Shown here in pieces: positions 15,480 to 35,060 of a stretch of 64,000 nt of DNA. The DNA comes from a candidate division FCPU426 bacterium (GTDB taxonomy: Bacteria > Oederibacteriota > Muellerivitia > Muellerivitales > Muellerivitaceae), in NCBI GenBank assembly GCA_963847625.1, contig CAWKAR010000020.1, forward strand, positions 1 to 64,000, in the 5' to 3' direction. Below the pieces are notes generated by a model, which was not told the DNA's origin, ran no database searches, and was given only the letters and a program-made list of their open reading frames with translations. A program made the position numbers and the translations under genes. Within the stretch, counting starts at the first letter, position 1. Each line of letters starts with the position of its first letter.

Positions 15480-17297
15480 TTACTTAATGAAAATTATCCT
15501 CTTCAACCTTGTCCCATAAGGTTCAGTCAGCATAAAAACATAAACTCCACTGGCACAGGAGTCACCATACTTGTTGGTCCCATTCCATTGGTACGACTGG
15601 CTGAACGGGGCGTCGAGGAACTGGGAATCGAGTGTTTTAATGTGCTCACCCGCCGAATTGTAAATCCTTAAGTCGTAACTCCCTGGATACCGGTTGTATT
15701 CCACGAAAATGGAAACCGGTTCCGAGGGACTGAAAATGTTTTTGGACACGTAAAAGATATCTATATAAACCGGAGTAGGGGTGGGCGTACAAGTGTTGCC
15801 CGGCCAACCGCAAGGCGTGTCCGTGTCAGTAGGAGTAAAAGTTGAAGTTGGCGTTGGGGTAACCGTGGGAGTGTTCGTGACCGTGAAGGTTTCGGTAAAC
15901 GTGTGAGTAAAGGTCGGTGTGAAGGTGGCTGTGGGTGTCGGGGTCGAAGTGAGTGTCTTGGTGAATGTCGGAGTAGACGTAAAAGTTGGTGTGAATGTAA
16001 ACGTTCTGGTAAGGGTTGCCGTATAAGTATAAGTGAGAGTCTTGGTGTTCGTCGGAGTAGGCGTAACCGTGGGGGTATGGGTGTCGGTGAGCGTCGTGGT
16101 TAAGGTTGGCGTGTTGGTCGGCGTAATGGTGGGAGTATTGGTGGGAGAATAAGTCAAAGTCCAAGTATTCGTGTCGGTCGGTGTGTTGGTGGCGGTCGGG
16201 GTGTCCGTCACCGTGGGAGTAGGTGTCTTGGTAGGTGTATTTGTTGGCGTGTTCGACGGGGTCAATGTGGGTGTGTTCGTAGAAGTGAGTGTATTCGTCG
16301 GAGTGTTGGTTTCGGTGGACGTGGGGGTCGGGGTAAAACTATTGGTGAAAGTGCAGGTCGGGGTTAAGGTCGGCGTGTCCGTGAAGGTATTCGTGAAGGT
16401 TGGCGTGTAGGTTGCAGTCGGTGTATTGGTGGAGGTCGGTGTATCCGTCACCGTGGGAGTAGGTGTCTTGGTAGGTGTGTTTGTCGGTGTGTCCGTAGAG
16501 GTCGATGTGGATGTGTTTGTAGAAGTAAGTGTTTTCGTCGGGGTAAAACTATGGGTGAATGTGTTAGTCGGGGTTAAGGTCGGCGTGTCCGTGAAGGTAA
16601 TCGTGAAGGTTGGCGTGTAGGTTGCAGTCGGTGTGTTGGTAGAGGACGGTGTGTCCGTTACTGTAGAGGTGTGTGTCTTAGTAGGTATATTTGTTGGGGT
16701 GTTGGTCTCGGTGGAAGTGTAGGTCGGGGTAAAACTATTGGTGAAAGTGCTGGTCGGGGTTAAGGTTGGCGTGTCCGTGAAGGTATTCGAGAAGGAAGGC
16801 GTGTAAGTTACGGTTGTGGTGTCGGTGGGGGTAAAGGTGGGCGTAATAGTCGTGGTAAAGGTTATCGTGTGTGTGGAGGTGGCAGTATGGGTATTTGTCG
16901 GAGTATTGGTCAAGCAGGCGACCGTATCGGTGACCGCATTGGTGAGGAGCATTTGCAGGGGTGAGCCGATATCAATGGATGCTTGGTCCACGAATGAGGA
17001 CGGGACGCAAGATTTAATATAAACCCATAACGTAACCGCACCGGTAGTGGGCGAAAGCACTGTTCCCATATTCCAAACCACCATCCCCGATACTTCGGAG
17101 CAGGGCGCGCCTGAGCAGGAAAGATAGGTTAGGTTGGTGGCAAGCGTGTCCACAATCGTGGTCTGGTACCAATTGCTGCCGGAATAGTTAGTATAATTAA
17201 TGACAAAGCCTACGGTGACGCCAACGCTTAATTGGGCTTGGGCACCGGAAAACTCCAAAAACAAAAGAAACGTGGAAAAACCAAATATTTTCCACAT
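15480..17297 (-). CDS. Secreted mucin-like Thr/Pro-rich protein: DUF11-like domain, long Thr-rich tract, FlgD-Ig-like C-terminal domain
   Basis: Signal peptide from ATG 17297 (ORF open to 17438); [23 protein letters not shown]; long (TPT)n tract; [14 protein letters not shown]...WNGTN...ASGVY. Confidence 0.75.
16170..16800. repeat. Internal coding tandem repeats of the Thr-rich tract
   Basis: Unit [21 protein letters not shown] occurs three times and [19 protein letters not shown] twice, with near-identical DNA. Confidence 0.75.
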
Positions 17298-17632
17298 CCG
17301 TCCGACGGCCGGCTCCGTTAAAACGATAGCGGTAAGCGCCGTTGAATTCCCGGTATGGGAAACTAACCTTTTTCTCGAAAAAACTAATTTTGATATTAGG
17401 ACCCGCATTTTATTAACACACCTTTCAATATTGGACAATCCACTTATCCAATACGACTAACTCGGAACCGAACAAGGAAACCCGTTTCCGAGTCGGTCAT
17501 GCAAATTCCGAAAAAAAGCTGTAAAAACCTGAGAAGTGAACCAATAGAACTGTTGATCGCATCTTTACGGGCTCCACCGCCCAACTGCTCGCCCGTTAAT
17601 ATGCTCCGCCAAATTTTCGACTCAGCCGAAAA

Positions 17633-18643
17633 TCATGGTGGCGGAGGCGGTCCGCTGTCCCCATGCTTACCGTTAGTCACGGTTTTTTGGGGAGAAGGCA
17701 TGAAGGGATTGGTCCCAAGATTTTGAGGCGTTAATTGCGCGGCCACAAAATTTTTAAAAAGGACTTTGTCGCCCTCTTTTAACCCCGAGATTACTTCCGT
17801 TTTTTTGCCTTCACAGAAGCCCGTTTGAATGATTTGCGTTTGGGGCCCGCCATCCGGGCTTGTGGGGGCCTTCATAACAAAATAATCACCGTCGGAAGTT
17901 TGTTGCAAAGCCTCCGTTGGAACGACCAAAACTTTATTTTTTATGGATAAATTGAAAACCACATTGGCCGTCATGCCGCTTCTCATGAAGGAAGATGCCT
18001 TTATGGGCCACACGTCCACCTCGTAGGTGGTCACGTTATTGACCATGGTGGATTGGTAAGCAATCCGCCCCACCCTGCCGTTGATTAAATGGTCTGGGTA
18101 AGCATCAAGGGTGACAAATGCTTTCTGGCCCAACTTGATCAGGGCAAGGTCGGTCTCATCCACTTGGGTGTTCACGATCAATCGGTCGGACATGACCATA
18201 ATTGTGACTCCCGTGTTGACTACTTGGCCGGGAACGGTCGGCAAATAAATGATCCGGCCGTTTTCAGGGGAAAGAAGGGGTGTTGCCTGATAATACTGTT
18301 CCCAACGACCCAATTGGGAGATGCCTTGGGCGGCTGCTTCATCCAACAAGGTGGCCCGTTCAGTGGAGCTTAATTCCATAAGCTTTTGGCCTTTTCGGAC
18401 GGTGTCCCCTTCACGCGAAAGGATTTTCTCGATTCTTCCCGATAGGGGCGGAAAGACGGCCAATTGATTGTGGGGCTGGACGTTTCCGGTTTCCAAGACG
18501 GAAGTCTGAATGTCTTCCCTCGTAACAAGCACCTCTTGAAAACCGTCTGAGACTCGCGCCTTTTTACCCCAGCCGAGACCAGTTAAAAGGGCTGCAAGAC
18601 CCAAGGTCACTGCTGGAATGAGAATTTTCCATCGCATAGACAT
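17633..18643 (-). CDS. Membrane-fusion/periplasmic adaptor protein (MacA/HlyD-like, short hairpin)
   Basis: PPLSGRIEKILSREGDTVRKGQ lipoyl half, VDETDLALIKLGQ, MRSGMTANV, VISGLKEGDKV. Confidence 0.85.
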   Translation of the reverse strand: MSMRWKILIPAVTLGLAALLTGLGWGKKARVSDGFQEVLVTREDIQTSVLETGNVQPHNQLAVFPPLSGRIEKILSREGDTVRKGQKLMELSSTERATLLDEAAAQGISQLGRWEQYYQATPLLSPENGRIIYLPTVPGQVVNTGVTIMVMSDRLIVNTQVDETDLALIKLGQKAFVTLDAYPDHLINGRVGRIAYQSTMVNNVTTYEVDVWPIKASSFMRSGMTANVVFNLSIKNKVLVVPTEALQQTSDGDYFVMKAPTSPDGGPQTQIIQTGFCEGKKTEVISGLKEGDKVLFKNFVAAQLTPQNLGTNPFMPSPQKTVTNGKHGDSGPPPPP

Positions 18644-18656
18644 ACATTCTTTCCCA

Positions 18657-19448
18657 TCAAGTCTTTCCCGGATTTTCGATTTGTCCGCTGGGCGAGGACT
18701 GGAACTGAGTGGCTAAGTCACCGCTGAAAACGAGGGGCCCCACGTGCTGGAGGCGGCTTTTGAGGTCCGCCCAGATTTCCCCACCCATGTCGGTCCAGCG
18801 ACGGCAAAAACTATGATCCTCACTTAGGTAAATCCCCGTTTTCGGCTCAATCATGCAGTTGAAAAAAGCGTACCGGAAAGGGTTTTTCTCCAACGGGTCG
18901 TCCATCGTGAATGCCCCCGTATAGCGTAGTTCCGGATAACGCTTCATCATCCGCTCGAAAACCGCCCTGCGGATCAAGGTGAAACCCATACCCACGCGCC
19001 GGACTTTGGTGAAACCATCCCGCGTCTGAATCTTTTCGGGGTCCATGACTTCGAAATCGTAATCCAAGACCGCCGATTCCAGATGGAGACGCCCCTCCTT
19101 GGCCATGGCTTCAAACCGGGAAAGGTTCAATCGCTTGTCCGGGTAAACCGCCGCTGCCACATCCACCCCGAGGTCCAGCAGGCGGAAAACCTGTTCCGGC
19201 TCGAAACCTACGTCCGCGTCCACGAACAGGAGATGGGTAGCGGGTGTGTTGGCCAAAAACCGGGCCACGATGTCCTGACGCGCCCGCTGGATCAGCGCGT
19301 CTCCCCATTGGGCCAGGACGTTAAAACCCACGTCGCCACGGCCATAACAGATTTTTTGCAGTTTCAGCACCGAATGAGCGTAGATGCTGTTCACCTGAGC
19401 CCCAAAACAAGGACTGCCGATCATGATATAAGGGGGAAATGGGTTCAT
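18657..19448 (-). CDS. GT-A fold glycosyltransferase-like protein (paralog 1)
   Basis: PCFG...ARQ...THLLFVDAD (DxD)...GMGFTLIRR...LSEDHSFCRRW...L.HVG. Confidence 0.7.
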   Translation of the reverse strand: MNPFPPYIMIGSPCFGAQVNSIYAHSVLKLQKICYGRGDVGFNVLAQWGDALIQRARQDIVARFLANTPATHLLFVDADVGFEPEQVFRLLDLGVDVAAAVYPDKRLNLSRFEAMAKEGRLHLESAVLDYDFEVMDPEKIQTRDGFTKVRRVGMGFTLIRRAVFERMMKRYPELRYTGAFTMDDPLEKNPFRYAFFNCMIEPKTGIYLSEDHSFCRRWTDMGGEIWADLKSRLQHVGPLVFSGDLATQFQSSPSGQIENPGKT

Positions 19449-20224
19449 GGCGCGGCCTTCCGGGCCACGATTCCCGAGGGGGCATGTCCTCGGGTGAGGA
19501 AATCACCCTCGAAAGTAATCTGGCCCACATGGCTCAAACGGCTGCGCAAATCCACCCAGATCTTGCCGCCCATGTCGGTCCATCTCCGGCAAAAGCTGTA
19601 ATCCTCACTGAGATAAGCCCTGGTTTTTTCGTCTAGGAGGCAGTCAAAGAGCGCCGACCGGAAAGGGCTTCCGGCGAGTGGATCGGTCCTGCGGCTCACT
19701 CCGGAATAACTTAGTTCCGGATAATGTTCCACTATGGCGAGAAGAGCCTCGCGCCGAATCATCAGGAAGCCGGTACCGGCGTAACGCGCCTTCCCGAACC
19801 CGTTCCGTTCGACAGCGGGTTTATCCAGTTCCACCACATAGCGAAGATTTCCGGTTTGCGGCCGTTCGTAATTGCCCATGACCAGGGCCTTTACCCTGGC
19901 CCAATCGATCCGCTTCAAGGGATAGGCCCCAGCCGTTATTTCCGCGTTGAATTTCAGGAGCCGGAAAACCTGTTCCGGCTCGAATTGGATGTCCGCGTCG
20001 ACGAACAAAAGGTGAGTGGCGTCCTGGATTTCCAGGAACTTGGCCGCCATGTCCTGGCGGGCCCGGGTAATCAGGGGGTCGTTTGGGTTCAACAGGATGG
20101 TTACTTGTAACCCTTCCCGTATGAAAGCCTCCTGCAACCTCAGCAGAGAGAAAAAATACGCGCTGGTCAATTGGCCGCCGAAGCAGGGGGTGGCGACTAT
20201 CAGGTGGATGCGGGATTTGCCCAT
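19445..20224 (-). CDS. GT-A fold glycosyltransferase-like protein (paralog 2)
   Basis: ATPCFGG...ITRARQ...LLFVDAD...GTGFLMIRR...LSEDYSFC; 4-bp overlap with paralog 1. Confidence 0.7.
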   Translation of the reverse strand: MGKSRIHLIVATPCFGGQLTSAYFFSLLRLQEAFIREGLQVTILLNPNDPLITRARQDMAAKFLEIQDATHLLFVDADIQFEPEQVFRLLKFNAEITAGAYPLKRIDWARVKALVMGNYERPQTGNLRYVVELDKPAVERNGFGKARYAGTGFLMIRREALLAIVEHYPELSYSGVSRRTDPLAGSPFRSALFDCLLDEKTRAYLSEDYSFCRRWTDMGGKIWVDLRSRLSHVGQITFEGDFLTRGHAPSGIVARKAAP

Positions 20225-20366
20225 GGTTTTTTCATCCTCGAAATAATTCCGTATCCAAAAAAAAGTGGATTTTCATTTGGAAAATTCGCGTTGCCTTCCG
20301 TTCAGCGATATAAATTTCAAGTCCAGATTTTGACCATGCTTGCAAAATATGTCATTTGGTAAACCT

Positions 20367-22613
20367 TTATGTCGTCTTTGACTGAAAGGAAATGGCGCTC
20401 GATGTTGTGCCACCCAAAATGCTCACCAAATCGGAATACATCTGGTCGATTACCTGCAGAACTTGAAGTAACGCGTTGTAAGTAATCAAGGATTGCTCGG
20501 CCTGCTGTTCTATGGTTGCGATGGGAACACCCGGGGTTGACGAAGTGGAACTCGACCCGCTGGTGGTACCGGTTGACACCCCCGCGATATTGGCTTGGGC
20601 GTCATTCAATTGGGTCAATGAATCCGAAGCCTGGGTGGCAAGGGTTTCTTGATTTGAATAATCGTTGCTGATTTGGGTCAGCAACCCGGAAGCCAGGTTC
20701 CCAACGGAAGTTAGATTGCCGTTTAAACCCGTAAAAACCGAGAAATTTCCGGAATTGTCAACAACCGTCAAGGGTTGCGGGGTATGGTCGTAAAGGGTCA
20801 AAGTCTGTGTGCTCGTGTTGAAACTAGCCGTTACGGCATTCCCGGATACCGTGGCAATTTGCGTGGCAATCGCCTGTAAAGACATGGTATTGGTCCAGTT
20901 AATCTTGTAGGTCTGATTATTCCCGGCCGTGATAGTAAAGGTCCCGCTAGTGCCGGGGGTCACTCTAAAAGCCTCGACATTGGGGCCGGTATTGAAAGCA
21001 GTGCCGAGAAGGCTCGAATTCATGGCCGTTGCAGCGGAATTCGTGAGATCAACATAATCAATCTTCGGCTCCGATCCAGCAAAACTATTGTTCATCCGAA
21101 TAGAGCTGTTTATGGCATTGGAAAGATTGCTCCAATTTGATATTCCCCCGGCAAAATTCCCGGAAATATTAACCAGGCTTACCGGATTGTTGGAAAGAAT
21201 GAAAAATTGCCTGGAAGTTGCGTTATAAACGGCATCCACATTCGGGTCAGCCGCGTTGATTTTCGCGAGGATGCTGTCAATCGAGTCGGCGGTTGTATAA
21301 GTTACCAATTGCTGGTTAACGGTAAAGGAACCAGCTACGGGTATCGTGGAAAAAACCTGGGAACTAATGGCTTGCGTGGGATCAATAGTTGCGCCGGCAA
21401 CCCCAGGTTGGCTTTCCATAAAGTTGTTCCCCAAAAGATTCGGAAGATCACCTAAAAATTTCGCGATTGTCCCATCAGTGGTATCGTTAGGGTCGATTGC
21501 TGCGGCCAGCAACGAGTTATTGGAAATCAAGCCGCCGCTCACACTGATATTCCCGGCACCCGTTCCCGTAAAAAACGCTGTCCCGGTTGTTGTTCCGTTG
21601 GCCGCATAACCCGCTTTATGGAGGATGTTGGTGATATTCAATACCGAGGTGGCGATTTGGTCGACCTGATCTTTGTAGGATTCCAAAACGACGTCTCGCG
21701 CCTGTAACTCACCGGCAAGGTTTCCCCCCGTGATTAATGTTGTAACATCCGAAACAATTACTTGTCCGGTCGGCGTTTGGGAGGTATAGACGATTGTTCC
21801 GTTGGGGGATTGTATGGATATGCCCACCAAGTTTGGATTATGCTGGTTTGAGAGATTAGTTTGAAGAATAGCCGCCCCGGAAGAATCCACCAAGGCGATT
21901 CCGCCGATAACAACTCTCACAGTTCCATTGTCCCCAATAACAGCCTGGTTGTTGATTAATCTCGAAAGACGGTCTAAGGCGTAATCCCGGGCGTCCAAAA
22001 GGCTGTTTTGGTTCGAGCCTTGGGTGGTATTAAGCTCTTTGTTGATGGAGGATAATTGCTGGAGGATCTGGTTGATCTGCGTTACCGTTGTATTGATTTC
22101 GCCGTTCATGTCCGTCTGTTCGGTTTGCAACTCCTCATACTGGGAGTTCGCCAATTGGGCGAAAACCACACCGTCATTGACGACGTCTGTGCGCAAACCG
22201 GTATTCGTCGGATCAGCTGCTAAATTCGTCCATGCCTGGGCGAAATTGGTCAAAGCCGTGCTTAAGGTTGAACTCCCGTCCACAATTCCCTTAATATTGC
22301 TGAGGGTCTGGGATAATATTTCCGCCTTCCCCAACACCGAACTTTCCTGCTGGATCTGCTGGTCCAGAAACAAGCTTCTTAAACGCGTGATGCTTTGGAC
22401 ATAGGACCCGGTTCCCACCGAAAGATATTGGTTTCCCGAATAAAAGGAAGTGGAAATTCCATCCTCCACATTAACTCTTTCAAGGCTATTCATTAAATAA
22501 CCATCGGAATCAAGAGACGTTTGGGCCAGGTTCGACGCAGTTACATCCTGTTCCAATTGTTGGAGAATCAAAGCACTCGTGATGGTGTAAAGACTTTGAA
22601 AACTGTTGATCAT
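20367..22613 (-). CDS. flgK: Divergent flagellar hook-associated protein FlgK-like
   Basis: GTGSYVQSITRLRSLFLDQQI, LTNFAQAWTNLAADP, VTQINQILQQLSSINKEL, LLDARDYALDRLS, GGNLAG..ARD; termini are non-canonical. Confidence 0.8.
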   Translation of the reverse strand: MINSFQSLYTITSALILQQLEQDVTASNLAQTSLDSDGYLMNSLERVNVEDGISTSFYSGNQYLSVGTGSYVQSITRLRSLFLDQQIQQESSVLGKAEILSQTLSNIKGIVDGSSTLSTALTNFAQAWTNLAADPTNTGLRTDVVNDGVVFAQLANSQYEELQTEQTDMNGEINTTVTQINQILQQLSSINKELNTTQGSNQNSLLDARDYALDRLSRLINNQAVIGDNGTVRVVIGGIALVDSSGAAILQTNLSNQHNPNLVGISIQSPNGTIVYTSQTPTGQVIVSDVTTLITGGNLAGELQARDVVLESYKDQVDQIATSVLNITNILHKAGYAANGTTTGTAFFTGTGAGNISVSGGLISNNSLLAAAIDPNDTTDGTIAKFLGDLPNLLGNNFMESQPGVAGATIDPTQAISSQVFSTIPVAGSFTVNQQLVTYTTADSIDSILAKINAADPNVDAVYNATSRQFFILSNNPVSLVNISGNFAGGISNWSNLSNAINSSIRMNNSFAGSEPKIDYVDLTNSAATAMNSSLLGTAFNTGPNVEAFRVTPGTSGTFTITAGNNQTYKINWTNTMSLQAIATQIATVSGNAVTASFNTSTQTLTLYDHTPQPLTVVDNSGNFSVFTGLNGNLTSVGNLASGLLTQISNDYSNQETLATQASDSLTQLNDAQANIAGVSTGTTSGSSSTSSTPGVPIATIEQQAEQSLITYNALLQVLQVIDQMYSDLVSILGGTTSSAISFQSKTT

Positions 22614-22771
22614 AGCTTCCCCCTAAACGGTCTGGTTCACACGCATGTTTCTTTTAGTTTCCCCATCTAGGCCTGAGTAAAACGATTTGGCCGGACGGGG
22701 TTAAGACCGATAAGACGTTGGCAATGCTACTGATGCCAGTCGGCATGAAGCTTCCCTGGAGTGAACTTTAG

Positions 22772-22787
22772 AGCAAATGCCATACCA
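22772..22787 (-). promoter_or_regulatory. sigma54 (-24/-12) promoter of flgK
   Basis: TGGTATG-GCAT-TTGCT. Confidence 0.7.
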
Positions 22788-22832
22788 GTTTTCCGATGAA
22801 AAACCCGGCTATTTTTAAACATCAATGGGATT

Positions 22833-22872
22833 GTCGTAACGGTTATTCGGCAAGGCGCCAAATATTGGTTAA
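22833..22872. promoter_or_regulatory. Shared upstream tandem motif (putative enhancer), flgK copy
   Basis: gtcgtaacggttattcggcaa-ggcgccaaatattggttaa. Confidence 0.55.
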
Positions 22873-22959
22873 AAAAACAACGAACCCTGTCACGGAGAAT
22901 TCGAGTCCTGCATTTGGCATTCGATGCTTTTTACATACAGTTTTCCACCAAGGGCCGAT

Positions 22960-26715: not shown

Positions 26716-26764
26716 ACCGTGGCCGTGGCAAAAAATCGCGGTTTAGTCAAAAGCGGGCCAGTTT

Positions 26765-26803: not shown

Positions 26804-26935
26804 GGATGGTTTTAAATGCCGAAGGAACCCGGGAAGTTCGGGAGGCTGGAGATGAAACATCGTGAATTCATCATTAACAGCGGGTCAGTAAATATTTACG
26901 GAAAGTATAAATAATGGCTTATTAGAAATTGAAGA

Positions 26936-27505
26936 TTATTGGCTACCCCGGGAATCTGGGGCTTGACCCGGTGAAGGTGGAGGTGGAGGCAAATTTGCTC
27001 CTTTTCCGTCGTCCCTCCAGGGGTTCATCCAAGGCCCCTCAAGCGGTCCCCCGGTAATATCAAGTACGAATATAGCTTGCTGGGCCAAGGATAAGAGCAC
27101 TCGAAGTTTTTCCTCAAATTGATGACGATGGACCTCCAGTTGTTTTTGGTCTGCGGCCAGAACATCCAAGAGGGCTTTTATCTCCTCTTCAGGGGCTTTG
27201 GAATCGACTTTTAATTGAAGGGTAGCCCGGTCAACCTGAAACCGGTCCATGAGAAGCTTTAACTCTCCTTGATCATTTATAAACAGTTCTTTAATTTTAG
27301 CGGACTGCCCTTTGCTTAATCCAAGCCGTTTCTCCATCATTTTAACGGGGTCGGCTTCCCAACCTCGATTCATCCCCTTTCCCACCGCATCGGGGCCTTT
27401 GGTGCCGGTCGGGGGTTGGTCATTAGCCTTGACCGTCAAAACGGACCCCAAAATCAAGAACAATGATAAATACCCATACCCCAATATTTTCCAATAACGG
27501 CTCAT
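26936..27505 (-). CDS. Spy/CpxP/ZraP-like periplasmic protein
   Basis: Signal peptide; LGLSKGQSAKIKEL and LLSLAQQ (LTxxQ-like) motifs; Pro-rich tail. Confidence 0.65.
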   Translation of the reverse strand: MSRYWKILGYGYLSLFLILGSVLTVKANDQPPTGTKGPDAVGKGMNRGWEADPVKMMEKRLGLSKGQSAKIKELFINDQGELKLLMDRFQVDRATLQLKVDSKAPEEEIKALLDVLAADQKQLEVHRHQFEEKLRVLLSLAQQAIFVLDITGGPLEGPWMNPWRDDGKGANLPPPPPSPGQAPDSRGSQ

Positions 27506-27535
27506 GAATTTTCCTCCTTAATTTTCCATTTTTTA

Positions 27536-27551
27536 AGCAAATCTTGTACCA
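27536..27551 (-). promoter_or_regulatory. sigma54 promoter of the Spy/ZraP-like gene
   Basis: TGGTACA-AGAT-TTGCT. Confidence 0.7.
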
Positions 27552-27588
27552 AACTGGATTTTCGATTTTTTAACGCTTCGAACCCTTT

Positions 27589-27627
27589 GTCGTACAAATT
27601 TTGGTTACTGCGCCAAATTTTAGTTAA
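27589..27627. promoter_or_regulatory. Shared upstream tandem motif (putative enhancer), zraP-like copy
   Basis: gtcgtacaaattttggttac-tgcgccaaattttagttaa. Confidence 0.6.
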
Positions 27628-27777
27628 GGGAGCCACAAAATTCGTTGTTCCCTTTTCCCAAAAGAAAAGAGGGTTTGAATGAATTTTTAAGCACTTTTAC
27701 GACATTAAGGTTACCAATATGTTCACTAAATTTTTCTTTTGGTTTTTTTGAATGATAAATGGGTAAAAGGTTGATTT

Positions 27778-29055
27778 TTAATTCCCATTTTTTATATCCA
27801 TATCACGGTTTTGTTCTTTCAATATGGATTCATCCTTCCCATTATCCTTCCAATTGTTCATCCACGGTTCCCTATCCAGCCAACTGGATCCGGTCAGTCC
27901 CAAGATAAACTTGGCCCTCTGATCCGTCGTTAAAAGGTTCTGAAGCTGGTTCTCAAATTGCTGATGAAGATCTTCCAGGATCCTCCGGTCCTTGGAAAGG
28001 GCAACCAAAAGAATCGAAATCTCCCTATCCGAAGCCTTGGTATCGACCTTGGATTGCAAAGCATTTCGGTCCGCCTTCATTTGCCGGTTTAATGATTTGA
28101 TGTCCTCCTGTAATTGTTTAAACAAAATCCCGATCTTGGAAAATTGAGCGTTACTTAAGGCGAGTTTTTCCTTCCACATGTTTATATCCAGTTCGAAACC
28201 TTTGTGCGGAATGGATGCGCCTCGAAAATCCGGGCCTAACAACGGCCTGTCCCTGAAATCCGGGGCGTCGGGAGGACCCGCCATGAAAGGTAAAAAGCCT
28301 GGCGACCCTGGTATAAAGGGCGGCATAGCAAAAAACCCGGCCGGAGTCGCTTGAGCTGAATGTGTTTTGTCGTTTTGCGGCTGGCTTTGGGGAGGACCTT
28401 CGATTTCTTCCCGTAAAAGTGCCAACTTTTTTCGGAGTTTTTGATCCAGTTCCCCTTTGAGCCCGGTTTTTATTTCCGCGAGGGCCTCCTTGGGTTCCTT
28501 TAAGTCATGGAATAAAAGATAAGCGAGTGCGTAATGAGCCAACGCGAGGGAGGGTTCTAAACGGGTCGCCTCCTGGAATGTCAGTTTGGCCGAAGTGATT
28601 TCTTTATTCTTGTAATGAATCAAGCCCAAATAATAATGCACCATCGAAAGCTGGGAATCCAAACGTTTGGCCGTTTCCATTTCTTTCAAAGCCTCATCCC
28701 ATCGGCTTTGATCGTAGGCGATCAGACCCAAGTAGTAATGAACCACAGGCATTTGCGGTACGCGCTTTTGGACCCATTGGAAAAAGAGGGCGGCTTCAGC
28801 GAAATTTTGTTGAACATACTTAACTAAGCCCAAATAATAATGGGCGTTAATGTTTTCCGGGTCCTGCTCCAAAATTTTCCGGAAACCTTGCTCGGCTTTC
28901 TTGTAGCCTCCCGCATTCAAATCCGACACCGCATTTTCATAAACTCCCCTGGATGATGAATCCACCTGCGCTTCCAAACCGGATCCGGATATTAAAAATA
29001 AAAAACCGGTTGCAAGGATAAAAACCGTCAAGTAATTGGGTTTAGGGTTTCTCAC
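27778..29055 (-). CDS. Exported TPR protein fused to a Spy/CpxP-like domain
   Basis: GGAGG plus GTG 29055, signal peptide, repeated HYYLGL TPR units, Pro-rich linker, LALSNAQ...LLTTDQR domain paralogous to 26936-27505. Confidence 0.7.
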   Translation of the reverse strand: MRNPKPNYLTVFILATGFLFLISGSGLEAQVDSSSRGVYENAVSDLNAGGYKKAEQGFRKILEQDPENINAHYYLGLVKYVQQNFAEAALFFQWVQKRVPQMPVVHYYLGLIAYDQSRWDEALKEMETAKRLDSQLSMVHYYLGLIHYKNKEITSAKLTFQEATRLEPSLALAHYALAYLLFHDLKEPKEALAEIKTGLKGELDQKLRKKLALLREEIEGPPQSQPQNDKTHSAQATPAGFFAMPPFIPGSPGFLPFMAGPPDAPDFRDRPLLGPDFRGASIPHKGFELDINMWKEKLALSNAQFSKIGILFKQLQEDIKSLNRQMKADRNALQSKVDTKASDREISILLVALSKDRRILEDLHQQFENQLQNLLTTDQRAKFILGLTGSSWLDREPWMNNWKDNGKDESILKEQNRDMDIKNGN

Positions 29056-30394
29056 GGCAATGACCCTCCAAATGATGTTTGGCGATTTTGTACTGAAGGG
29101 CCGAACGGGAAACGCCCAATTTCCTTGCGGCATGGCTTTGGACGCCGCCAACTTCTTCCAGGGCATGCAAAATCAACGCCTTTTCCACTTCTTCCAAGGT
29201 CCGGATCAAATCCCCCTTCAAATTGCCGGGCAATGAGGGTGAAGAACCCCCTTCGGGGACAACCTCCATTTCTTCCTTCTCCGAAAGCACGACGGCCCTC
29301 TCAAGCAGATTTTGCAATTCCCGGACGTTACCCGGCCAGGGATAAGCCTGTAGGACCTTCATGGAAGATGGACTGATGCGCTTGGGCGGTCGGCCCACTT
29401 GGCCGCAAATTCTCTTTAAAAAACTTTCGACGAGCAGGGGAATATCCTCCGCACGATCCCGGAGAGGGGGGATATGGATCGTGACGACATTCAACCGGTA
29501 ATAAAGATCCTCCCGGAAAGCCCCCTGGGACACCTTTTGCTTCAAGTCCTTGTTGGTGGCGGCAATGACCCTCAAGTCAACCTGGATGGTCTGGGTGCCA
29601 CCCACCCGCTCGAATTCGCGTTCCTGCAAAACCCTCAAAAGTTTGACCTGGGTTTCCGGAGTGATTTCGGATACCTCGTCCAAAAGAAGGGTGCCACCCT
29701 GGGCCATCTCAAACCTGCCCATTTTCCTTTGAAGGGCGTCGGTAAAAGCCCCTTTTTCATGGCCAAAAAGCTCACTTTCCAGGAGCGTCGGCGCGAGAGC
29801 CGCACAATGGACGCGCACGAAAGGAGCGTCTTTCCAAGGACTGCTGTCATGGATGGCTTGGGCCACTAATTCCTTACCGGTGCCGCTTTCCCCCTCAATC
29901 AGGATGGTGGTTCGGGCGTCGCTTATCTTGCGGATCGTATCATAGACTTGGCGCATTCCCGGGCTGTCCCCAACCATCCGGCCCTGGTAAAGGCCGAGTT
30001 CATCCTTGAGCCGCCGGTTTTCCTCCTTCAAGTTGTTCACTTGAAGGCAGTGATTAATTCGCATTTGTAGTTCGTCCATGGAAAAAGGTTTCAAGACGAA
30101 ATCATACGCGCCCTTTCGCATAGCCGTTACCGCGTCCTCCACCGTTCCATAGGCGGTAATGACCAAAACATGAAGTTCAGGATCCATTTCCTTGACTTTT
30201 TCAAGCAGTTCCATTCCGTTCATGCCCGGCATCTTCAGGTCGGTCAAAAGTATTTGCACTTTTTCTTGATTCAATAGAGTAAGAGCTGATTCAGCGGAAG
30301 GAGCTGTCAGGACATGATGGCCTTCTTTCTTCAAATGGCGCTTGATAACATCCCTGATGTCTTGTTTGTCATCAACGATTAGGATAGTACTCAT
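29042..30394 (-). CDS. NtrC-family sigma54-dependent response regulator
   Basis: Receiver (VDD, DLKMP, KPF), GESGTGKE, ESELFGHEKGAFTDA, WPGNVREL, Fis-type HTH. Confidence 0.95.
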   Translation of the reverse strand: MSTILIVDDKQDIRDVIKRHLKKEGHHVLTAPSAESALTLLNQEKVQILLTDLKMPGMNGMELLEKVKEMDPELHVLVITAYGTVEDAVTAMRKGAYDFVLKPFSMDELQMRINHCLQVNNLKEENRRLKDELGLYQGRMVGDSPGMRQVYDTIRKISDARTTILIEGESGTGKELVAQAIHDSSPWKDAPFVRVHCAALAPTLLESELFGHEKGAFTDALQRKMGRFEMAQGGTLLLDEVSEITPETQVKLLRVLQEREFERVGGTQTIQVDLRVIAATNKDLKQKVSQGAFREDLYYRLNVVTIHIPPLRDRAEDIPLLVESFLKRICGQVGRPPKRISPSSMKVLQAYPWPGNVRELQNLLERAVVLSEKEEMEVVPEGGSSPSLPGNLKGDLIRTLEEVEKALILHALEEVGGVQSHAARKLGVSRSALQYKIAKHHLEGHCREKP

Positions 30395-31890
30395 GAGAAA
30401 CCTTTCGATATTGGCAAATATAGCCGAAAGACGGCACCGCCTGATGGAATGTTGAAAGCTTCCACGCGGCCTCTATGGGCGGAAACCACTTTATGCACGA
30501 ATGCCAAACCCAACCCAGAACCCGAGGTTTTGGTGCTGAAAAAGGGCTTGAAGAGTTTGGATTTCACATCGTCCGAAAAACCCGGGCCAGTGTCTTCCAG
30601 TTCCACCAGGGCGTACAAACCTTCCCGGCGTAATCGCAAGGTCAAAATTCCGCCTTTGGGCATCACCTCAAGCGCATTCAAACCAAGATTATAGAGGCTA
30701 TTGGAAAGAAGTGTCCGGTCGGCCTCGACTTTGTCCAGGGGTTCCATCTCTATTTTGACGATCACAGCCTGATTTCGAGCCTGTTCCATCAATGCCAGTT
30801 CCAATTCTTTTAGGAGGTCCTCCAAGGCAAGGAACTCTTTATCCAAATGAAAAGCGCGCCCATACTCCAAAAAACGCCTGACAAGGTAATTAAGCGCCTT
30901 CACTTGATCCTGGATCTTTTGAAGGGGTGGAATCGCTTCGAATAAGTGAACGGCCATCTTCTCGACCCATTCGGCCTCACCGCGAATGATGATAAGTGGA
31001 TTGCGCACTTCATGTGCTATTCCTGCGGCGACTTCCTTCATTTGCTCGGCCTGTTCCTCGGCAGCCTGTCTCAATCGGGACAATTCCTCCTCCCTGGCCT
31101 TGATCTGGGCGGACATTTCCAAGAGGGAGCCCTCCAGCTGGCCTAATTCGTCAGCCCTATGAACGCCGGGGATGGTTGTATTGGGATAACGGCCCTTCGC
31201 CACTTCCCGGGCCAACTTCGCCACGGTCCCCACGGGTTTCAATACGGTTTGTGCCACCAGCAAACTAACTAAAGCGCACACTAAAAAACCCATCATGCCT
31301 AGAAGGATGGAAAAATTCTTAAAACGTTTCAAAACCTCAAGGGACTTGGGATTCGCATCCACTTGAAGGATTGTTCCCTTAGACAAGGGGATAAACACCG
31401 ACTGGTGGAGCATTCCGAATTCCCCTGCGTGCACGGGAAGAAGGACCTGGAGGTTCCGGCGCAATTGGTCGATCTGCGGTTCCGTCAGCAGGAGACTCTT
31501 GAACCCCGGGACCGCCTCCCCTGTCGCGTCCAAGAGCACCGTCCCTTGGCTGTTTAAAAGCGTTATGTTTTCGAGCACGCCCGCGTCCAGGAACCGGCGA
31601 AGTGAAGGGACCATTGTAGCCGCCAAGGAACCGGGTAATTCCGGTTGGGAAAGTCCCGAAAATTGGCTGGATAGTTCTTTTCCCACCAAACGTCCCATGG
31701 ACAGAAGCTGTTCACCCATTATTTTTTCCAAGCTTTGTGAAACTATCCGGTAGATGATAAATCCCGTCGCTGATGAAAGAGCGAACCATAGACCCGTGAA
31801 AGTAATCAGGAGTTTGACTTTAAAGGATCTACGCCAAAAAAAGAGAAGATCTGAAACTTTTCGGGTTATGAGAGATGGGTAGCGGTTCAA
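30391..31890 (-). CDS. Membrane sensor histidine kinase with HAMP domain
   Basis: Two TMs, DELGQL, AHEVRNPL, NALE, DTGPG, FKPFFSTK, GSGLGL. Confidence 0.95.
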   Translation of the reverse strand: MNRYPSLITRKVSDLLFFWRRSFKVKLLITFTGLWFALSSATGFIIYRIVSQSLEKIMGEQLLSMGRLVGKELSSQFSGLSQPELPGSLAATMVPSLRRFLDAGVLENITLLNSQGTVLLDATGEAVPGFKSLLLTEPQIDQLRRNLQVLLPVHAGEFGMLHQSVFIPLSKGTILQVDANPKSLEVLKRFKNFSILLGMMGFLVCALVSLLVAQTVLKPVGTVAKLAREVAKGRYPNTTIPGVHRADELGQLEGSLLEMSAQIKAREEELSRLRQAAEEQAEQMKEVAAGIAHEVRNPLIIIRGEAEWVEKMAVHLFEAIPPLQKIQDQVKALNYLVRRFLEYGRAFHLDKEFLALEDLLKELELALMEQARNQAVIVKIEMEPLDKVEADRTLLSNSLYNLGLNALEVMPKGGILTLRLRREGLYALVELEDTGPGFSDDVKSKLFKPFFSTKTSGSGLGLAFVHKVVSAHRGRVEAFNIPSGGAVFRLYLPISKGFS

Positions 31891-31930
31891 TGTATTATTC
31901 CGTCACAAAAAGGTGGATTAAAAAGGATAG

Positions 31931-31946
31931 TGCAAGTTACATGCCC
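31931..31946 (-). promoter_or_regulatory. Possible sigma54 promoter of the two-component operon
   Basis: GGGCATG-TAAC-TTGCA. Confidence 0.5.
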
Positions 31947-32329
31947 GTATGATTAAAAAATCAATCGGTTAAAGAACTTTGGCCCTGATTTATATTTTGT
32001 CGCCTGAATTTTTCTCCAAAAACAACCATTCGGGGAGCCATTAAAGGATCAGGAGTGCGAAGCCGTCTATTTTTCACCGAGCCTAAACTCACCCCACAAC
32101 TGAAAACTACCGGATGCCCAACGGTTTTTTGATCTTGGTATTCAGTAGGTTTCGGTGATTGAATATTTTTTATCCACTGTCCACCCGCACCGGGAATAAT
32201 TCCGTCGGGGTAAAAAAGAATCTTTCAGTCCTTAAAATTTTTCGGTCACCGTCAAAGAAAAAAACCGTGACCGACCCATAATTCACCGGATGGAAGTTAA
32301 TCCCGAATAACCATCTGGTCGAAAACGAG

Positions 32330-32369
32330 ATAACCAAAATTCGGCATCTTAACTATAAACCATTACGAC
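32330..32369. promoter_or_regulatory. Shared upstream tandem motif (putative enhancer), flgE copy
   Basis: Reverse complement reads gtcgtaatggtttatagttaa-gatgccgaattttggttat; same orientation relative to transcription as the other three copies. Confidence 0.6.
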
Positions 32370-32417
32370 AATTTTATTCTGGTGATAAATTTACGGCTTT
32401 TCCAAACATTTTCCAAT

Positions 32418-32433
32418 TGGAACGAGATTTGCT
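32418..32433 (+). promoter_or_regulatory. sigma54 promoter of flgE
   Basis: TGGAACG-AGAT-TTGCT. Confidence 0.75.
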
Positions 32434-32551
32434 TATCCAGAAGAAGACTGCGGGATTTCAAAAGATAAGCAGTCCTCGGTTGGTCCTTTTTGAGCGACCC
32501 TGAGTTCAGGCGGATCTGTTCCCCGCCATAATAATTTCGAGGAGGAAAACA

Positions 32552-34459
32552 ATGGGTCTTCGAGACATGTATAGCGCCATTTCCGGCCTGGAAGCCAACA
32601 GTACTTGGCTTGACGTGATTGGAAATAACATCTCCAATACCAACACGGTGGCTTACAAAGCCAGCCGCGTGGAGTTTGCGGATGCGTTAAGTCAAACCCT
32701 CAGTTCCGGGCAGGGGGACAATACGGGCAGCAATATTGGAGGCACTGATCCCGAGCAGGTGGGATTGGGGACGAGGGTAGCTTCCATTACCACTTTATGG
32801 ACAGAGGGAACTTTACAATCGACTGGGTTGTCGACAGACGTCGCCATCAACGGAAATGGCTTCTTGTTGTCGAAAAATTCCGGTCAAACCTATTTGACAC
32901 GGGCCGGTAACCTGACTTTTGATAGCGCGGGAAATTTGGTCGACCAAAACGGCGGCTTAATCCAGGGATGGAGCGCTTCGACCAAATACACTACCACAAT
33001 TTTGGATTCCAGGGGGCAAAACGGACAGGCGTCGGTAATCACCGCTGCGAGCCTTGTCTTGAACGACACTGACCCCTCCCAAATCGGGAATATCCAGATC
33101 AAGACGGGTGAAACGGAACCAGCCAAGGCCACGACCGAGATTAACTTCGTCGGGAACCTGGACTCCTTTCAACAGGCCAACCAGACCGGGGGCGTATTAA
33201 ACCTGGGGACAACCGCCCAAGCGGTGCTCCCGTTCAATTACGCGGGCGCCCTGTTAAATAACGCGAAAGCGGGATTGGTCCTCTATCCCGCCGGAAACGC
33301 AAACGGTACGATGGCTTTTGAGCAAATAAGTAACCTGAGCACGCCGGTCGACGCGAACAACACTAATAACCAGACGACACCAGTTATGGAGAGCGGTGAA
33401 ACCTTAGCAGCTGCACAAGCTAACGGGGGCAATTATGCTTGGGACCAAAACCCCGCCGTGACGCCGGCCCTGACCACCACCACCACGGTTTACGATTCCA
33501 CGGGAACCCCGCGACAGATAACCACGCTGTTCTACCAGGTCAACGACTTGGGAACGGCGGGTGTTAATAACGCTGCCGGGCCTAACCAGGTTTGTTACGC
33601 CTGGTACTCTTTTGACACCACCAATGGCGCCAAAGTCAGCGACAAAACATTGGTCGGTGGTACGGGCATTCTTGAAGGTGAGGTCGGTGGACTTAATAAC
33701 AACATCGCGGCAAACGCTGGTTATGATAAGGGTGTAAACGGTGACCAGTACTGGGGGGATTTCGTTTATTTCAACACGGATGGTTCATTGGCTTCCGAGG
33801 GCGGGGTCCATCATGTCGCCGCCACCGGTAATAATATACAAAGCCAAGCCACCATATACCTATCACCCCTCAACGATAACGCAACCGTTTCCCCGATTCC
33901 AACCATCGGGGCTGAGGTCATGGCCGTTACCATGAATTTCGGCACCGCCGGCGCGGAAGACACCGCCACCTCCCAAATCCACGGCAAGCGGGACGGTTTG
34001 ACCGGCGACGCAGAGGGATCCTACCAAACGGTGAACGGGGTCAACACCTATGTTCCGGACAGCCATGCCACCGAAACGCAGAACGGGTACGCCGACGGTG
34101 TCCTTCAAAGCATTTCGTTTGACTCGACCGGGACGATTAACGGAACTTTTTCCAACGGCCAGACCACGGCATTAGGCCAGGTAGCTTTGGCCAACGTCGA
34201 GAATGAGGGCGGGTTGGACAAGGTCGGAAGCAATTACTATCAACTTTCAACAAACTCAGGTAAGGAAGTCGTTAGCACTGCCGGTAAGAACGGTCTTGGA
34301 ACTATTGAAGGCGGCACCTTGGAGTTATCCAATGTCGATTTGACGACTGAGCTTTCAAACATGATCCTCGCCCAGCGGGGATTTGACGTGAACTCCCGCG
34401 TGATCGCCGTTGAGAACGCCAACCTGCAGGTCCTGGTCCAATTGGGTCAGGGCGGTTAA
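32552..34459 (+). CDS. flgE: Flagellar hook protein FlgE with large central insertions
   Basis: SGL...LDVIGNNISNTNTVAYK, DVAINGNGF, TRAGN, YDSTG, LELSNVDLTTELSNMILAQRGF. Confidence 0.95.
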   Translation: MGLRDMYSAISGLEANSTWLDVIGNNISNTNTVAYKASRVEFADALSQTLSSGQGDNTGSNIGGTDPEQVGLGTRVASITTLWTEGTLQSTGLSTDVAINGNGFLLSKNSGQTYLTRAGNLTFDSAGNLVDQNGGLIQGWSASTKYTTTILDSRGQNGQASVITAASLVLNDTDPSQIGNIQIKTGETEPAKATTEINFVGNLDSFQQANQTGGVLNLGTTAQAVLPFNYAGALLNNAKAGLVLYPAGNANGTMAFEQISNLSTPVDANNTNNQTTPVMESGETLAAAQANGGNYAWDQNPAVTPALTTTTTVYDSTGTPRQITTLFYQVNDLGTAGVNNAAGPNQVCYAWYSFDTTNGAKVSDKTLVGGTGILEGEVGGLNNNIAANAGYDKGVNGDQYWGDFVYFNTDGSLASEGGVHHVAATGNNIQSQATIYLSPLNDNATVSPIPTIGAEVMAVTMNFGTAGAEDTATSQIHGKRDGLTGDAEGSYQTVNGVNTYVPDSHATETQNGYADGVLQSISFDSTGTINGTFSNGQTTALGQVALANVENEGGLDKVGSNYYQLSTNSGKEVVSTAGKNGLGTIEGGTLELSNVDLTTELSNMILAQRGFDVNSRVIAVENANLQVLVQLGQGG

Positions 34460-34486
34460 AGGATTTATTTAACCCAGGCTGCATAT

Positions 34487-34508
34487 TCCCCGGCCCTTGG
34501 CCGGGGGC
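34487..34508 (+). terminator. GC hairpin after flgE
   Basis: CCCCGGCC-ctt-GGCCGGGG; weak U-tract. Confidence 0.4.
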
Positions 34509-34655
34509 TAGCCGCTTCTTCCCTTGAATAGCTTTGAAAATCGAAGGCGCTTCAACTTCGCCCTTAAATGCAAGATTTTATGCTATCGAATATAAAAAAA
34601 GTGCTGATCCTCGACTTGATAAAAACCGCTAAATGTCAAAAAGAGGTGAATCATT

Positions 34656-35060
34656 ATGTTCCCGCAATCGAGTAAGAATGATCCAGCTTTAAAAGAAATA
34701 ACAAATATCCAGCACCGGTTAGGAATCGTTCATCGGCAAGCCGCGCAGACGATTGAAGAAATGAAATCTTTCGGAACCCTTTACCATGTTGCCACGGATG
34801 AAAATCATAAATTACAGTTTTCCATCCACGCTATGGATCGTATGGGTCTTCGGAACATCCATCTTTCCGCTCGGGACCTGGTCAGTATAAACAACGCTGT
34901 CGATAAAGCCTTGTTAAAAGGGGCAAGACAATCCCTGCTGGTGATGGCCGACCGGGCTTTTATCGTCGGCGTTTCCAACCGCACCGTCATTACTGCTTTG
35001 GACAGCGGCGATATGAGGGAAAAGGTCTTCGTCAATATCGACAGCGCAGTAATAATTTAG
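34656..35060 (+). CDS. Flagellar operon protein (TIGR02530-like)
   Basis: FSIHAMDRM..RNI...AVDKA..KGA..SL...NRTVITA...VFVNIDSAVII. Confidence 0.85.
   Translation: MFPQSSKNDPALKEITNIQHRLGIVHRQAAQTIEEMKSFGTLYHVATDENHKLQFSIHAMDRMGLRNIHLSARDLVSINNAVDKALLKGARQSLLVMADRAFIVGVSNRTVITALDSGDMREKVFVNIDSAVII

Follow-up and report, generated by a model that had tools for sequence, protein, structure and literature searches.

The locus studied here raises the question of what a few flagellar hook genes could be doing among genes for glycosyltransferases and Thr/Pro-rich secreted proteins. The window (64,000 nucleotides of contig CAWKAR010000020.1, from a candidate division FCPU426 bacterium) possesses an island of approximately 20 kb, at 15.4–35.1 kb, which we read as a mobile and inducible set of alternative hook, cap and junction genes whose products would rely on the flagellar export apparatus of the host, a reading to which we give about an even chance. 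All of the island's features are known from sequence and predicted structure. The assembly that holds the window (G000; 4.43 Mb, 63 contigs, 93.9% complete) was placed in a phylum sample of 41 genomes (G000 and relatives G001–G040), in which G001 is a congener of G000 and the genomes other than G000 comprise 24 of the window's family, one of a sister family and 15 of other families. Family matches were judged by curated cut-offs, that is, Pfam gathering scores and NCBIfam (TIGR) scores.

Evidence for this reading comes from the congener. The canonical flagellar cluster of G001 (C3, approximately 50 kb) encodes FlgBC, FliEFGHIJ, MotAB, FliLMNOPQR, FlhBAF, FliA, FlgFGAHJ and FlgM, and also FlgN, FlgK, FliK, FlgD, a TIGR02530 protein and FlgE, in the order flgN-flgK-fliK-flgD-TIGR02530-flgE. 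A copy of the island lies elsewhere in the same genome (G001:C7:8124-26858), matching window 15394-32640 with 91–95% nucleotide identity and the same gene order (blastn), and its activator and kinase are 98 and 95% identical in amino acid sequence to those of the window. As G001 has the island as well as a complete canonical cluster, the island genes are extra copies; this genome holds two flgK and two flgD genes, and a second flgK was observed only in this genus among the 41 genomes. This agrees with the proposal of an inducible alternative hook/junction set made in the earlier note on this DNA, as do the island's own kinase and activator and its private regulon of four promoters.

Read along the minus strand from 31890 to 15480, the island encodes a HAMP kinase, an NtrC-type activator, a TPR protein, a Spy-like protein, FlgD, a 143-aa protein, glycosyltransferase (GT) paralog 3, Thr/Pro-rich protein 2, FlgK, GT paralogs 2 and 1, a membrane-fusion protein (MFP) and Thr/Pro-rich protein 1. 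On the plus strand, divergent from the kinase gene, lie the genes for FlgE and then a TIGR02530-family protein. All named genes are intact open reading frames (ORFs) at the coordinates below, and the interleaving of FlgE, FlgK, FlgD and TIGR02530 genes with three GT-A paralogs, two Thr/Pro-rich proteins and an MFP that had been described holds. The absence of flgL, flagellin, rod, motor and export genes from the window was likewise borne out, with none of these recognised in a Pfam scan of its 43 ORFs. The features are as follows.

15394..32640, no strand: stretch common to the window and the G001 island (G001:C7:8124-26858)
15480..17438, minus: Thr/Pro-rich secreted protein 1, probable start at 17297 (MWKIF..., signal peptide)
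17633..18643, minus: MFP, a periplasmic adaptor (TIGR01730, HlyD_D23)
18657..19448, minus: predicted GT-A glycosyltransferase paralog 1, cytoplasmic, without signal peptide (fold and alignment)
19445..20224, minus: predicted GT-A glycosyltransferase paralog 2, its 3' end overlapping the start of paralog 1 by 4 nt
20367..22613, minus: flgK2, hook-associated protein 1 paralog, 748 aa (TIGR02492, FlgK_D1)
22772..22787, minus: sigma-54 promoter-like element of flgK2, TGGTATGGCATTTGCT (pattern match, kept in G001)
22856..22871, minus: shared upstream motif at flgK2, a candidate activator site, 84 nt upstream of the -24 element
22881..22903, minus: terminator-like hairpin and T run, 3' of the Thr/Pro-rich protein 2 gene (such sites were at chance level overall in the scan)
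22960..24498, minus: Thr/Pro-rich secreted protein 2, with signal peptide, N-terminal domain of approximately 300 aa, Thr/Pro linker and sorting-like C-terminal domain
24500..25288, minus: predicted GT-A glycosyltransferase paralog 3, abutting the start of the downstream Thr/Pro-rich protein 2 gene
25686..26117, minus: 143-aa Ser/Thr-rich protein, downstream of flgD2, without family match
26234..26731, minus: flgD2, hook cap paralog (PF03963, FlgD_tudor), probable start ATG at 26662
26700..26715, minus: sigma-54 promoter-like element of flgD2 (pattern match, kept in G001)
26787..26802, minus: shared upstream motif at flgD2, 87 nt upstream of the -24 element
26936..27505, minus: secreted Spy/CpxP-like protein, a weak assignment (NF007769, E 0.002)
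27536..27551, minus: sigma-54 promoter-like element of the spy-like gene (pattern match, kept in G001)
27611..27626, minus: shared upstream motif at the spy-like gene, 75 nt upstream of the -24 element
27778..29166, minus: TPR protein with a Spy-like C-terminal part (Pfam and paralogy)
29042..30394, minus: NtrC-type response regulator and sigma-54 activator (receiver, AAA+, HTH_8)
30391..31890, minus: histidine kinase (HAMP, HisKA, HATPase_c)
32331..32346, plus: shared upstream motif at flgE2, 87 nt upstream of the -24 element
32418..32433, plus: sigma-54 promoter-like element of flgE2 (pattern match, kept in G001)
32552..34459, plus: flgE2, hook protein paralog, 635 aa (TIGR03506)
34656..35060, plus: TIGR02530-family flagellar protein, second copy (TIGR02530 over cut-off)

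The four flagellar proteins were assigned to their families over the cut-offs, with FlgE2 scoring 223 bits against TIGR03506 (cut-off 70.25) and possessing PF00460 (Flg_bb_rod), PF22692 and PF06429 (Flg_bbr_C), and FlgD2 scoring 78.6 bits against PF03963 (cut-off 27; E 4e-22) and 29.7 against FlgD_tudor (cut-off 26.9). The TIGR02530 protein reached 90.5 bits (cut-off 83.2) and is 48% identical to the canonical copy of G001. FlgK2 is narrowly over the TIGR02492 cut-off of 170.75, with 171.6 and 173.5 bits in two scans, and matches FlgK_D1 (PF22638) at E 7e-43, with the C-terminal part of the TIGR02492 model unmatched. The canonical FlgK of G001 itself scores 159 with this model, under the cut-off, suggesting that the divergence of FlgK is typical of the lineage.

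Divergence from the canonical proteins is unevenly spread along the paralogs. FlgE2 is 74% identical to the canonical FlgE of G001, with 82–96% over the terminal 150 and 135 residues and 56–76% in the outward-facing centre. FlgK2 is 97% (96.7%) identical to the G001 island copy, 75–80% to the canonical FlgK of G001 and 43–62% to those of other f1/f2 genera; its first 50 residues are 90% identical to canonical FlgK, and approximately 117 aa of the inner variable region are missing. FlgD2 is 70% (70.5%) identical to the canonical FlgD of G001 and 90% to the island copy there. The termini of axial proteins mediate export and assembly, and conserved ends with a divergent centre are the pattern expected of subunits that would fit the same rod and export gate while presenting a different surface.

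A maximum likelihood tree of 24 FlgE proteins resolved two old clades, one cluster-borne and one 'orphan', each with support of 97/96 and both occurring in both families of the order. FlgE2 is the sister of the canonical FlgE of G001 inside the cluster-borne clade (bootstrap 100, Shimodaira-Hasegawa-like approximate likelihood ratio 100). The distance between these two is 0.28 changes per column, similar to the 0.26 between the orphan orthologs of the two species, which suggests that the island copies came from either the genus's ancestor or a congeneric donor, two origins that these distances do not distinguish. G000 also possesses a second FlgE paralog (C50:115959-117851; L010:11960-13852), which is 51% identical to FlgE2, stands alone beside an aldo-keto reductase gene and belongs to the old orphan clade. 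In several genera, the orphan flgE is preceded by a gene for a large C-terminal-domain protein, by msrA and by a gene with a SET domain. A sigma-28-like promoter was considered for this clade and set aside, as six aligned upstream regions showed no clear common element.

The window has five matches to the pattern TGGNAYN5TTGCT, compared with 0.32 expected and none of 100 shuffles reaching five; the whole 4.43-Mb G000 assembly has 28. Of the five, four precede flgK2, flgD2, the spy-like gene and flgE2 in the correct orientation, and the fifth is antisense, inside the activator gene. These four agree with the sigma-54 consensus (TGGYAY-N5-TTGCW, GG at -24, GC at -12), by which sigma-54 dependence is predicted, and all are conserved in place in G001; rpoN is present in G000 (C41:50563-51039). 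Promoters of this type had been claimed for flgE, flgK and flgD, and each was found, with a fourth at the spy-like gene that goes beyond the earlier list. The common upstream motif that had also been claimed is present as a 16-nt word, TAACYRAWATYYGGCR, lying 75–87 nt upstream of all four sites. It has no match outside these sites in the 4.43-Mb G000 assembly, a count that is descriptive and not an independent test, as the pattern was derived from the same four sites. All three exact matches in G001 fall within the island, as does one of the six one-mismatch matches; a control pattern gave eight. The exact word TTACGACAAT, common to the upstream regions of flgK2 and flgE2, was insignificant alone and was not retained.

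The genes flgK2, GT2, GT1 and MFP follow each other at spacings of 143, -4 and 14 nt behind a single promoter. The layout suggests four transcription units, namely the spy-like gene; flgD2 with the 143-aa gene; flgK2-GT2-GT1-MFP; and flgE2 with the TIGR02530 gene. The flgD2 unit possibly extends to GT3 and Thr/Pro-rich protein 2, and the flgK2 unit to Thr/Pro-rich protein 1; a hairpin and T run separates the gene of Thr/Pro-rich protein 2 from the upstream region of flgK2. The earlier note's kinase/NtrC/Spy set was upheld for the kinase and for the activator, an NtrC-type bacterial enhancer-binding protein with PF00072, PF00158 (Sigma54_activat, E 9e-71) and PF02954 (HTH_8), while the Spy call corresponds to one weak NCBIfam match. 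The best NCBIfam rows for the kinase are AtoS and ZraS, both far under their cut-offs. The Spy-like protein is paralogous to the C-terminus of the TPR protein (40% identity over 139 aa). A second kinase, sigma-54 activator, TPR and Spy-like cassette, paralogous to the island's regulators, was observed at G000:C28:54066-63945.

The ratio of nonsynonymous to synonymous change (dN/dS) between the two island copies is 0.04–0.35 in 16 of 16 segments, with no internal stops (FlgK2 0.14, FlgD2 0.04, the three GTs 0.16–0.27, the 143-aa gene 0.21 and the activator 0.09), and the island genes are thus maintained under purifying selection. Synonymous divergence (dS) between the copies is 0.05–0.31 in 15 of the 16 segments, compared with 0.71–0.84 for five core or orthologous genes of the two species, and by this measure the island is several-fold younger than the species split. 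The exception is flgD2 (26234-26662), with a dS of 1.57. Gene conversion from canonical flgD was considered as the cause and is not supported, the window copy being 70.5% identical to canonical FlgD and the island copy of G001 68.6%.

The island also lies in a neighbourhood of mobile elements. It is bracketed, together with mobile-element genes, by two copies of IS21 (istA and istB) in the same orientation, at 11603-13932 and 53883-56212. Its neighbours also include AbiE, three adjacent tyrosine recombinases (38768-42101) beside ArdC and a truncated reverse transcriptase of a group II intron (35921-36862), and a type IV coupling protein gene (49721-51532); a coupling-protein gene directly adjoins the island in G001. 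The low dS of the island together with its mobile-element neighbours indicates recent horizontal exchange.

The three GT paralogs are 46–52% mutually identical and carry no signal peptide. No Pfam family was over threshold for them, and among 27 members of their family the sub-threshold matches were Glycos_transf_2 in six (best E 0.013) and Anp1 (PF03452) in one (E 0.25), which is short of membership of GT62/Anp1; the Atlas neighbours named 'putative Anp1' are taken as a lead only. A profile of the family found no match among PDB sequences. For this family of approximately 260 aa, the protein collection contains 3111 homologs; not one is named for a function, and where a name is given it is 'hypothetical protein'. 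A model of GT3 built from a 27-sequence alignment (pLDDT 87.1, pTM 0.85) has a beta-alpha-beta core, in which strand 3 (72-76) is followed by the invariant D77-x-D79 (DAD motif). Foldseek with this model returned 156 PDB chains at E <= 0.001, the top matches being STIV A197, the LH3 glycosyltransferase domain, Mnn9, COLGALT1 and polypeptide GalNAc-transferases, with TM-scores of 0.38–0.59. The predicted structure is that of a GT-A fold, and with TM-scores this modest the fold is assigned and the specificity is not. A fourth-type paralog, 63% identical to GT3, is present at G000:C34:44387-45157, where the match region has a TAA stop, yet a 254-aa ORF is open there.

The GT family was observed in 22 of the 24 other genomes of the window's family and in the single genome of the sister family, and in none of the 15 from other families. 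Six of these 23 genomes (from genera g2 twice, g3, g5, g10 and g13) have a GT copy 4–7 kb from an FlgE gene, the two being separated by a gene for a large C-terminal-domain protein, msrA and a gene with a SET domain; these neighbourhoods may be inherited synteny rather than a functional unit. A wider survey covered 80 family loci from species genomes within a radius of 8 kb. An FlgE gene was found within this distance in 25 of the 80 loci, and in five more only FlgJ, or the ORF between flgH and flgJ, was present. The records are titled Alphaproteobacteria, families therein or plain Proteobacteria for 22 of the 25 FlgE loci and all five of the others. In Bradyrhizobium sp. STM 3562 the order is msrB-flgE-flgK-flgL-GT, followed by two uncharacterised genes, a decarboxylase gene and an 804-aa flagellin gene. 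Judged by gene neighbourhood, the GT family is linked to the flagellum in at least two distant lineages, though not exclusively. A methionine sulfoxide reductase gene adjoins flgE both in Bradyrhizobium (msrB, L084:1458-8783) and at the orphan flgE of the window's family (msrA, L033-L038).

Thr/Pro-rich genes were near the GT gene in six of the 80 loci, all from relatives of the window's family. Thr/Pro-rich protein 1 consists of an N-terminal domain, a linker of 367 aa (48% Thr, 14% Pro) and a sorting-like C-terminal domain; the linker of protein 2 is 47% Thr and 17% Pro, and signal peptides are visible in both proteins. The C-terminal domain of protein 1 matches FlgD_ig (23 bits, cut-off 27) and CHU_C (17 bits), both under cut-off, and protein 2 matches TIGR04183, a type A sorting domain of the type IX secretion system, at 18.7 bits (cut-off 23); genes of the PorV/PorQ family exist in the congener G001. 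The sorting-like domain (window 15483-15812 and 22963-23226) gave at least 45 tblastn matches on approximately 20 contigs of G000, and marks what is, by these matches, a large family of predicted secreted proteins in this genome. The MFP scored 102.5 bits against TIGR01730 (cut-off 94.9) and matches HlyD_D23, and no transporter partner for it was found within the island. The 143-aa protein has no family in Pfam or NCBIfam, and its Atlas scores are <0.9.

If the island is an alternative hook set, the HAMP kinase would sense a periplasmic or envelope signal and phosphorylate the NtrC-type activator, which would bind the shared motif and open the four sigma-54 promoters. Their transcripts would cover the spy-like gene; flgD2 and the 143-aa gene; flgK2, two GTs and the MFP (possibly with Thr/Pro-rich protein 1); and flgE2 and the TIGR02530 gene. 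With terminal segments that are near-canonical, FlgD2, FlgE2 and FlgK2 would be expected to pass the flagellar type III export gate and to polymerise on the existing rod, and the outcome would be a hook and tip with an outer surface unlike the canonical one. The cytoplasmic GTs would O-glycosylate the Ser/Thr-rich axial proteins before export, or alternatively modify the Thr-rich secreted proteins.

Control of hook genes by sigma-54 and two-component systems is familiar from polar flagellates, in FlgSR of Campylobacter and Helicobacter, FlrBC of Vibrio, FleSR of Pseudomonas and FlbD of Caulobacter. Those systems drive a single canonical set as one tier of a hierarchy, and their kinases are cytoplasmic. 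The island resembles them in its NtrC-type activator and in the sigma-54 promoters before flgD, flgE and flgK, and differs in having a kinase with HAMP, four promoters confined to the island, and extra copies as targets. In ZraPSR of Enterobacteria, a kinase and a sigma-54-dependent regulator are accompanied by a sigma-54-driven gene for a small secreted protein of the Spy/CpxP family. The island's kinase and activator beside a sigma-54-driven Spy-like gene are similar in layout only, as its regulon, unlike that of ZraPSR, includes flagellar structural genes and its Spy-like assignment is weak. The activator scored far under the FlgR and FlbD models (322 and 331, compared with 750 for each) and under ZraR (409 compared with 760), and the kinase under ZraS (133 compared with 479; NCBIfam). 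With these equivalog models so far from being reached, the likeness is one of logic and not of membership.

Secondary flagella, such as lateral flagella and flag-2 of Enterobacterales (PMC6993521), are complete, with their own export gate, motor and flagellin. Like them, the island is a separately regulated second flagellar set, of a kind sometimes horizontally acquired and sometimes with glycosylation genes; unlike those systems, it has only cap, hook, hook-associated protein 1 and TIGR02530 genes, and no export gate (FlhA, FlhB, FliPQR), motor, rod or filament gene of a complete secondary system was found by Pfam among the 43 window ORFs. The FlgE2 paralogs of Campylobacter and Helicobacter (PMC4626219), which are single chromosomal genes, are similarly extra hook proteins in a sigma-54 setting, whereas the island is mobile, comprises several genes and includes a sensor, a flgK/flgD pair and GTs. 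Cytoplasmic GTs encoded beside flagellar structural genes recall the O-glycosylation systems of flagellar proteins, such as FlmG of Caulobacter (PMC7591256), although the island GTs belong to a different, unnamed GT-A family and adjoin hook and junction genes rather than flagellins. In word searches of open-access text, neither a description of this GT family nor a report that it glycosylates hooks was found, and no comparable partial hook module. A guess that the lineage belongs to candidate phylum MBNT15 gained no support; the genome treated in PMC9386147 is stated there to be without flagellar machinery.

Additional flagellar genes are familiar in two forms, complete second systems and supplementary flagellins. 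Were the island what we propose, a mobile cassette of hook cap, hook and first junction genes, equipped with an envelope sensor, a sigma-54 regulon of its own and GTs in the same transcripts, would be a new way of varying the flagellum, in which the hook, besides the filament, could be swapped and exchanged between species. The finding also places a GT family of approximately 3000 members without assigned function beside hook and junction genes in two phyla, which offers a testable hypothesis for its substrate.

Several observations weigh against this interpretation. No export apparatus was found in G000, so that the host machine is an assumption drawn from the congener and the argument for missing contigs given below. 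In G001, flgE2 has been cut to approximately 90 nt by an insertion sequence (IS), the homology between the two islands ending approximately 90 nt into flgE, where G001 has IS transposases; the full set is therefore dispensable there. The MFP gene of G001 is also interrupted, by approximately 1 kb. The linkage of GT and mucin-like genes to the hook genes in relatives, on which the earlier note had made its proposal depend, stood in part: it is present in two species of the genus, and a looser GT-flgE association extends to 6/23 genomes and to Alphaproteobacteria, but the full arrangement was seen only in those two species. No further island was found in the 41 sampled genomes or in the metagenome scan, which, with FlgK2, returned three distant relatives (46–52% identity). 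The GT family is also found in other settings, as the Bryobacter-, Terriglobia- and Acidobacteria-titled loci among the 80 had no flagellar matches, one of four inspected non-flagellar loci sits among sugar-nucleotide (GDP-sugar) genes, and the other two GT loci of G000 have no adjoining flagellar or Thr-rich genes. The descriptive character of the motif count is to be added to these.

The first alternative to be weighed is that the flg paralogs and the GT, Thr-rich and MFP genes are unrelated neighbours under one envelope-stress regulator, in which case the island would be mainly a surface-remodelling cassette of glycosylated Thr-rich proteins and a chaperone, with the captured flg genes of minor importance. 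G003 possesses a homolog of Thr/Pro-rich protein 2 (62% identity in the N-terminal domain) beside three GT genes without flgK or flgD, which fits this explanation, as do the many copies of the sorting-like domain across the genome (at least 45), the second regulator cassette on C28 and the loss of flgE2 in G001. Three of the four regulon promoters directly precede flagellar genes, however, and flgK2 is the first gene of an operon with two GTs; the low dN/dS of FlgK2 and FlgD2 and the flagellar linkage of the GT family in another phylum also argue against it. We consider this explanation unlikely, if still worth serious attention.

A second alternative is a non-motile glycosylated filament or adhesin derived from the hook, in which a long FlgE2 fibre capped by FlgK2 would serve for attachment. 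The island lacks flgL and flagellin, and has no fliK of its own in Pfam and NCBIfam scans, and the canonical FliK of the lineage is very long (1019 aa in G001, L025:11621-14680; 1045 aa in G023, L037:5207-8344), all of which, like the scarcity of filament genes in the phylum sample, could be expected of such a fibre. The lack of filament genes is not confined to the island, as Flagellin_N was found in only two of the 41 genomes, with FliD_C and FliS over their cut-offs in the same two only, so that filament genes were not found in 39 of the 41, while FlhA was present in 33 and FlgE/F/G in 36. Weak FliD_C matches in eight genomes of the family proved to be a 625-aa TPR/sigma-54 activator protein and were discarded. 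The canonical cluster of G001 also has no recognised FlgL, flagellin, FliD or FliS, though FlgN, FlgK, FliK, FlgM and FliA are present. With the canonical set of G001 and most of the sample lacking flgL and flagellin, this absence is a property of the lineage and not of the island, and the 'hook-only appendage' that the earlier note saw as a feature of the island is not supported as such. MotAB, FliGMN and methyl-accepting chemotaxis proteins are kept in the lineage, which favours rotation, and sequence does not tell an adhesive hook from a rotating one. An attachment fibre is in our view distinctly unlikely.

Either the filament proteins of this lineage are too divergent for the models or its flagella end differently. 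A bolder version of our reading, which we regard as a speculative and rather unlikely one, is that the lineage builds flagella without flagellin and with an exposed distal structure of the FlgE family, of which two ancient clades coexist there, and that the island is a horizontally exchanged, stress-induced, glycosylated replacement cassette for the hook tip. It would then be to the hook what phase or antigenic variation is to flagellin. If confirmed, the missing filament genes in FlhA-bearing genomes would bear on what a working flagellum needs, and may outweigh the island itself in importance. Two further observations were made at the canonical cluster of G001: it includes four genes for outer-membrane proteins of the PorV/PorQ family (L025:1382-3381, L026:3846-7590), and two uncharacterised genes, of 1051 and 520 aa, directly follow its flgE.

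It is improbable that the island genes are hitchhiking relics, that is, a fragment duplicated from the flagellar cluster onto a mobile element and now without function. The mobile-element and IS genes around the island, the destroyed flgE2 and interrupted MFP gene of G001, and a gene order scrambled relative to the canonical flgK-fliK-flgD-TIGR02530-flgE could all be accounted for in this way. All four flagellar genes are nevertheless intact in the window, dN/dS is 0.04–0.35, and in both genomes every flagellar operon has its own conserved promoter and upstream motif.

The alternative set that we favour requires a flagellum on which to act, and the assembly holding the window appears at first to lack one. 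FlhA, FliP, flagellin and rod genes were not found in G000, Flg_bb_rod occurs there only in the window's FlgE and FlgK and in the FlgE paralog at C50:115959-117851, and FlgD and FlgK occur only in the window. The genes of the G001 cluster other than flgK, flgD, TIGR02530 and flgE have no counterpart in G000. The same is true of the genes flanking that cluster, secD, secF, proC, yggS, mtnA and a purine-nucleoside phosphorylase gene, all of which are missing from G000. SecD was over cut-off in four of four relatives, always on the contig that carries FlhA, and FlhA is present in 21 of the 24 other genomes of the window's family. The loss of flanking housekeeping genes together with the cluster suggests that this region of the chromosome is unassembled or unbinned, and the absence of the flagellar core from G000 is most likely an assembly gap. 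A non-flagellated organism with orphan hook genes was set aside on the same evidence. A clean deletion joint was sought in G000, and only fragmentary synteny was found. Contigs of four peat-metagenome DNA runs with small shares, compared with the canonical flgE-flgK region of G001, matched only in short pieces at 80–95% likeness, which might just as well derive from island copies.

That the window holds the only flgD, flgE and flgK copies, an objection foreseen in the earlier note, is literally true of G000, and is void there, where secDF and proC are missing as well, and fails in the congener. That these are the organism's only flgD and flgK and its main flgE, with the other flagellar genes dispersed or the rest of the flagellum lost, is accordingly very improbable: it would account for the missing FlhA, FliP, flagellin and rod genes and for FlgD and FlgK being confined to the window, but not for the missing housekeeping genes beside the G001 cluster, the missing SecD, or a congener with both gene sets, and the assembly is only 93.9% complete.

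Outside the island, the left part of the window (160-7932, to the left of IS21) encodes a ZnuA/ABC-3 metal uptake pair, three tandem DUF3299 genes and a MacB-type ABC exporter.

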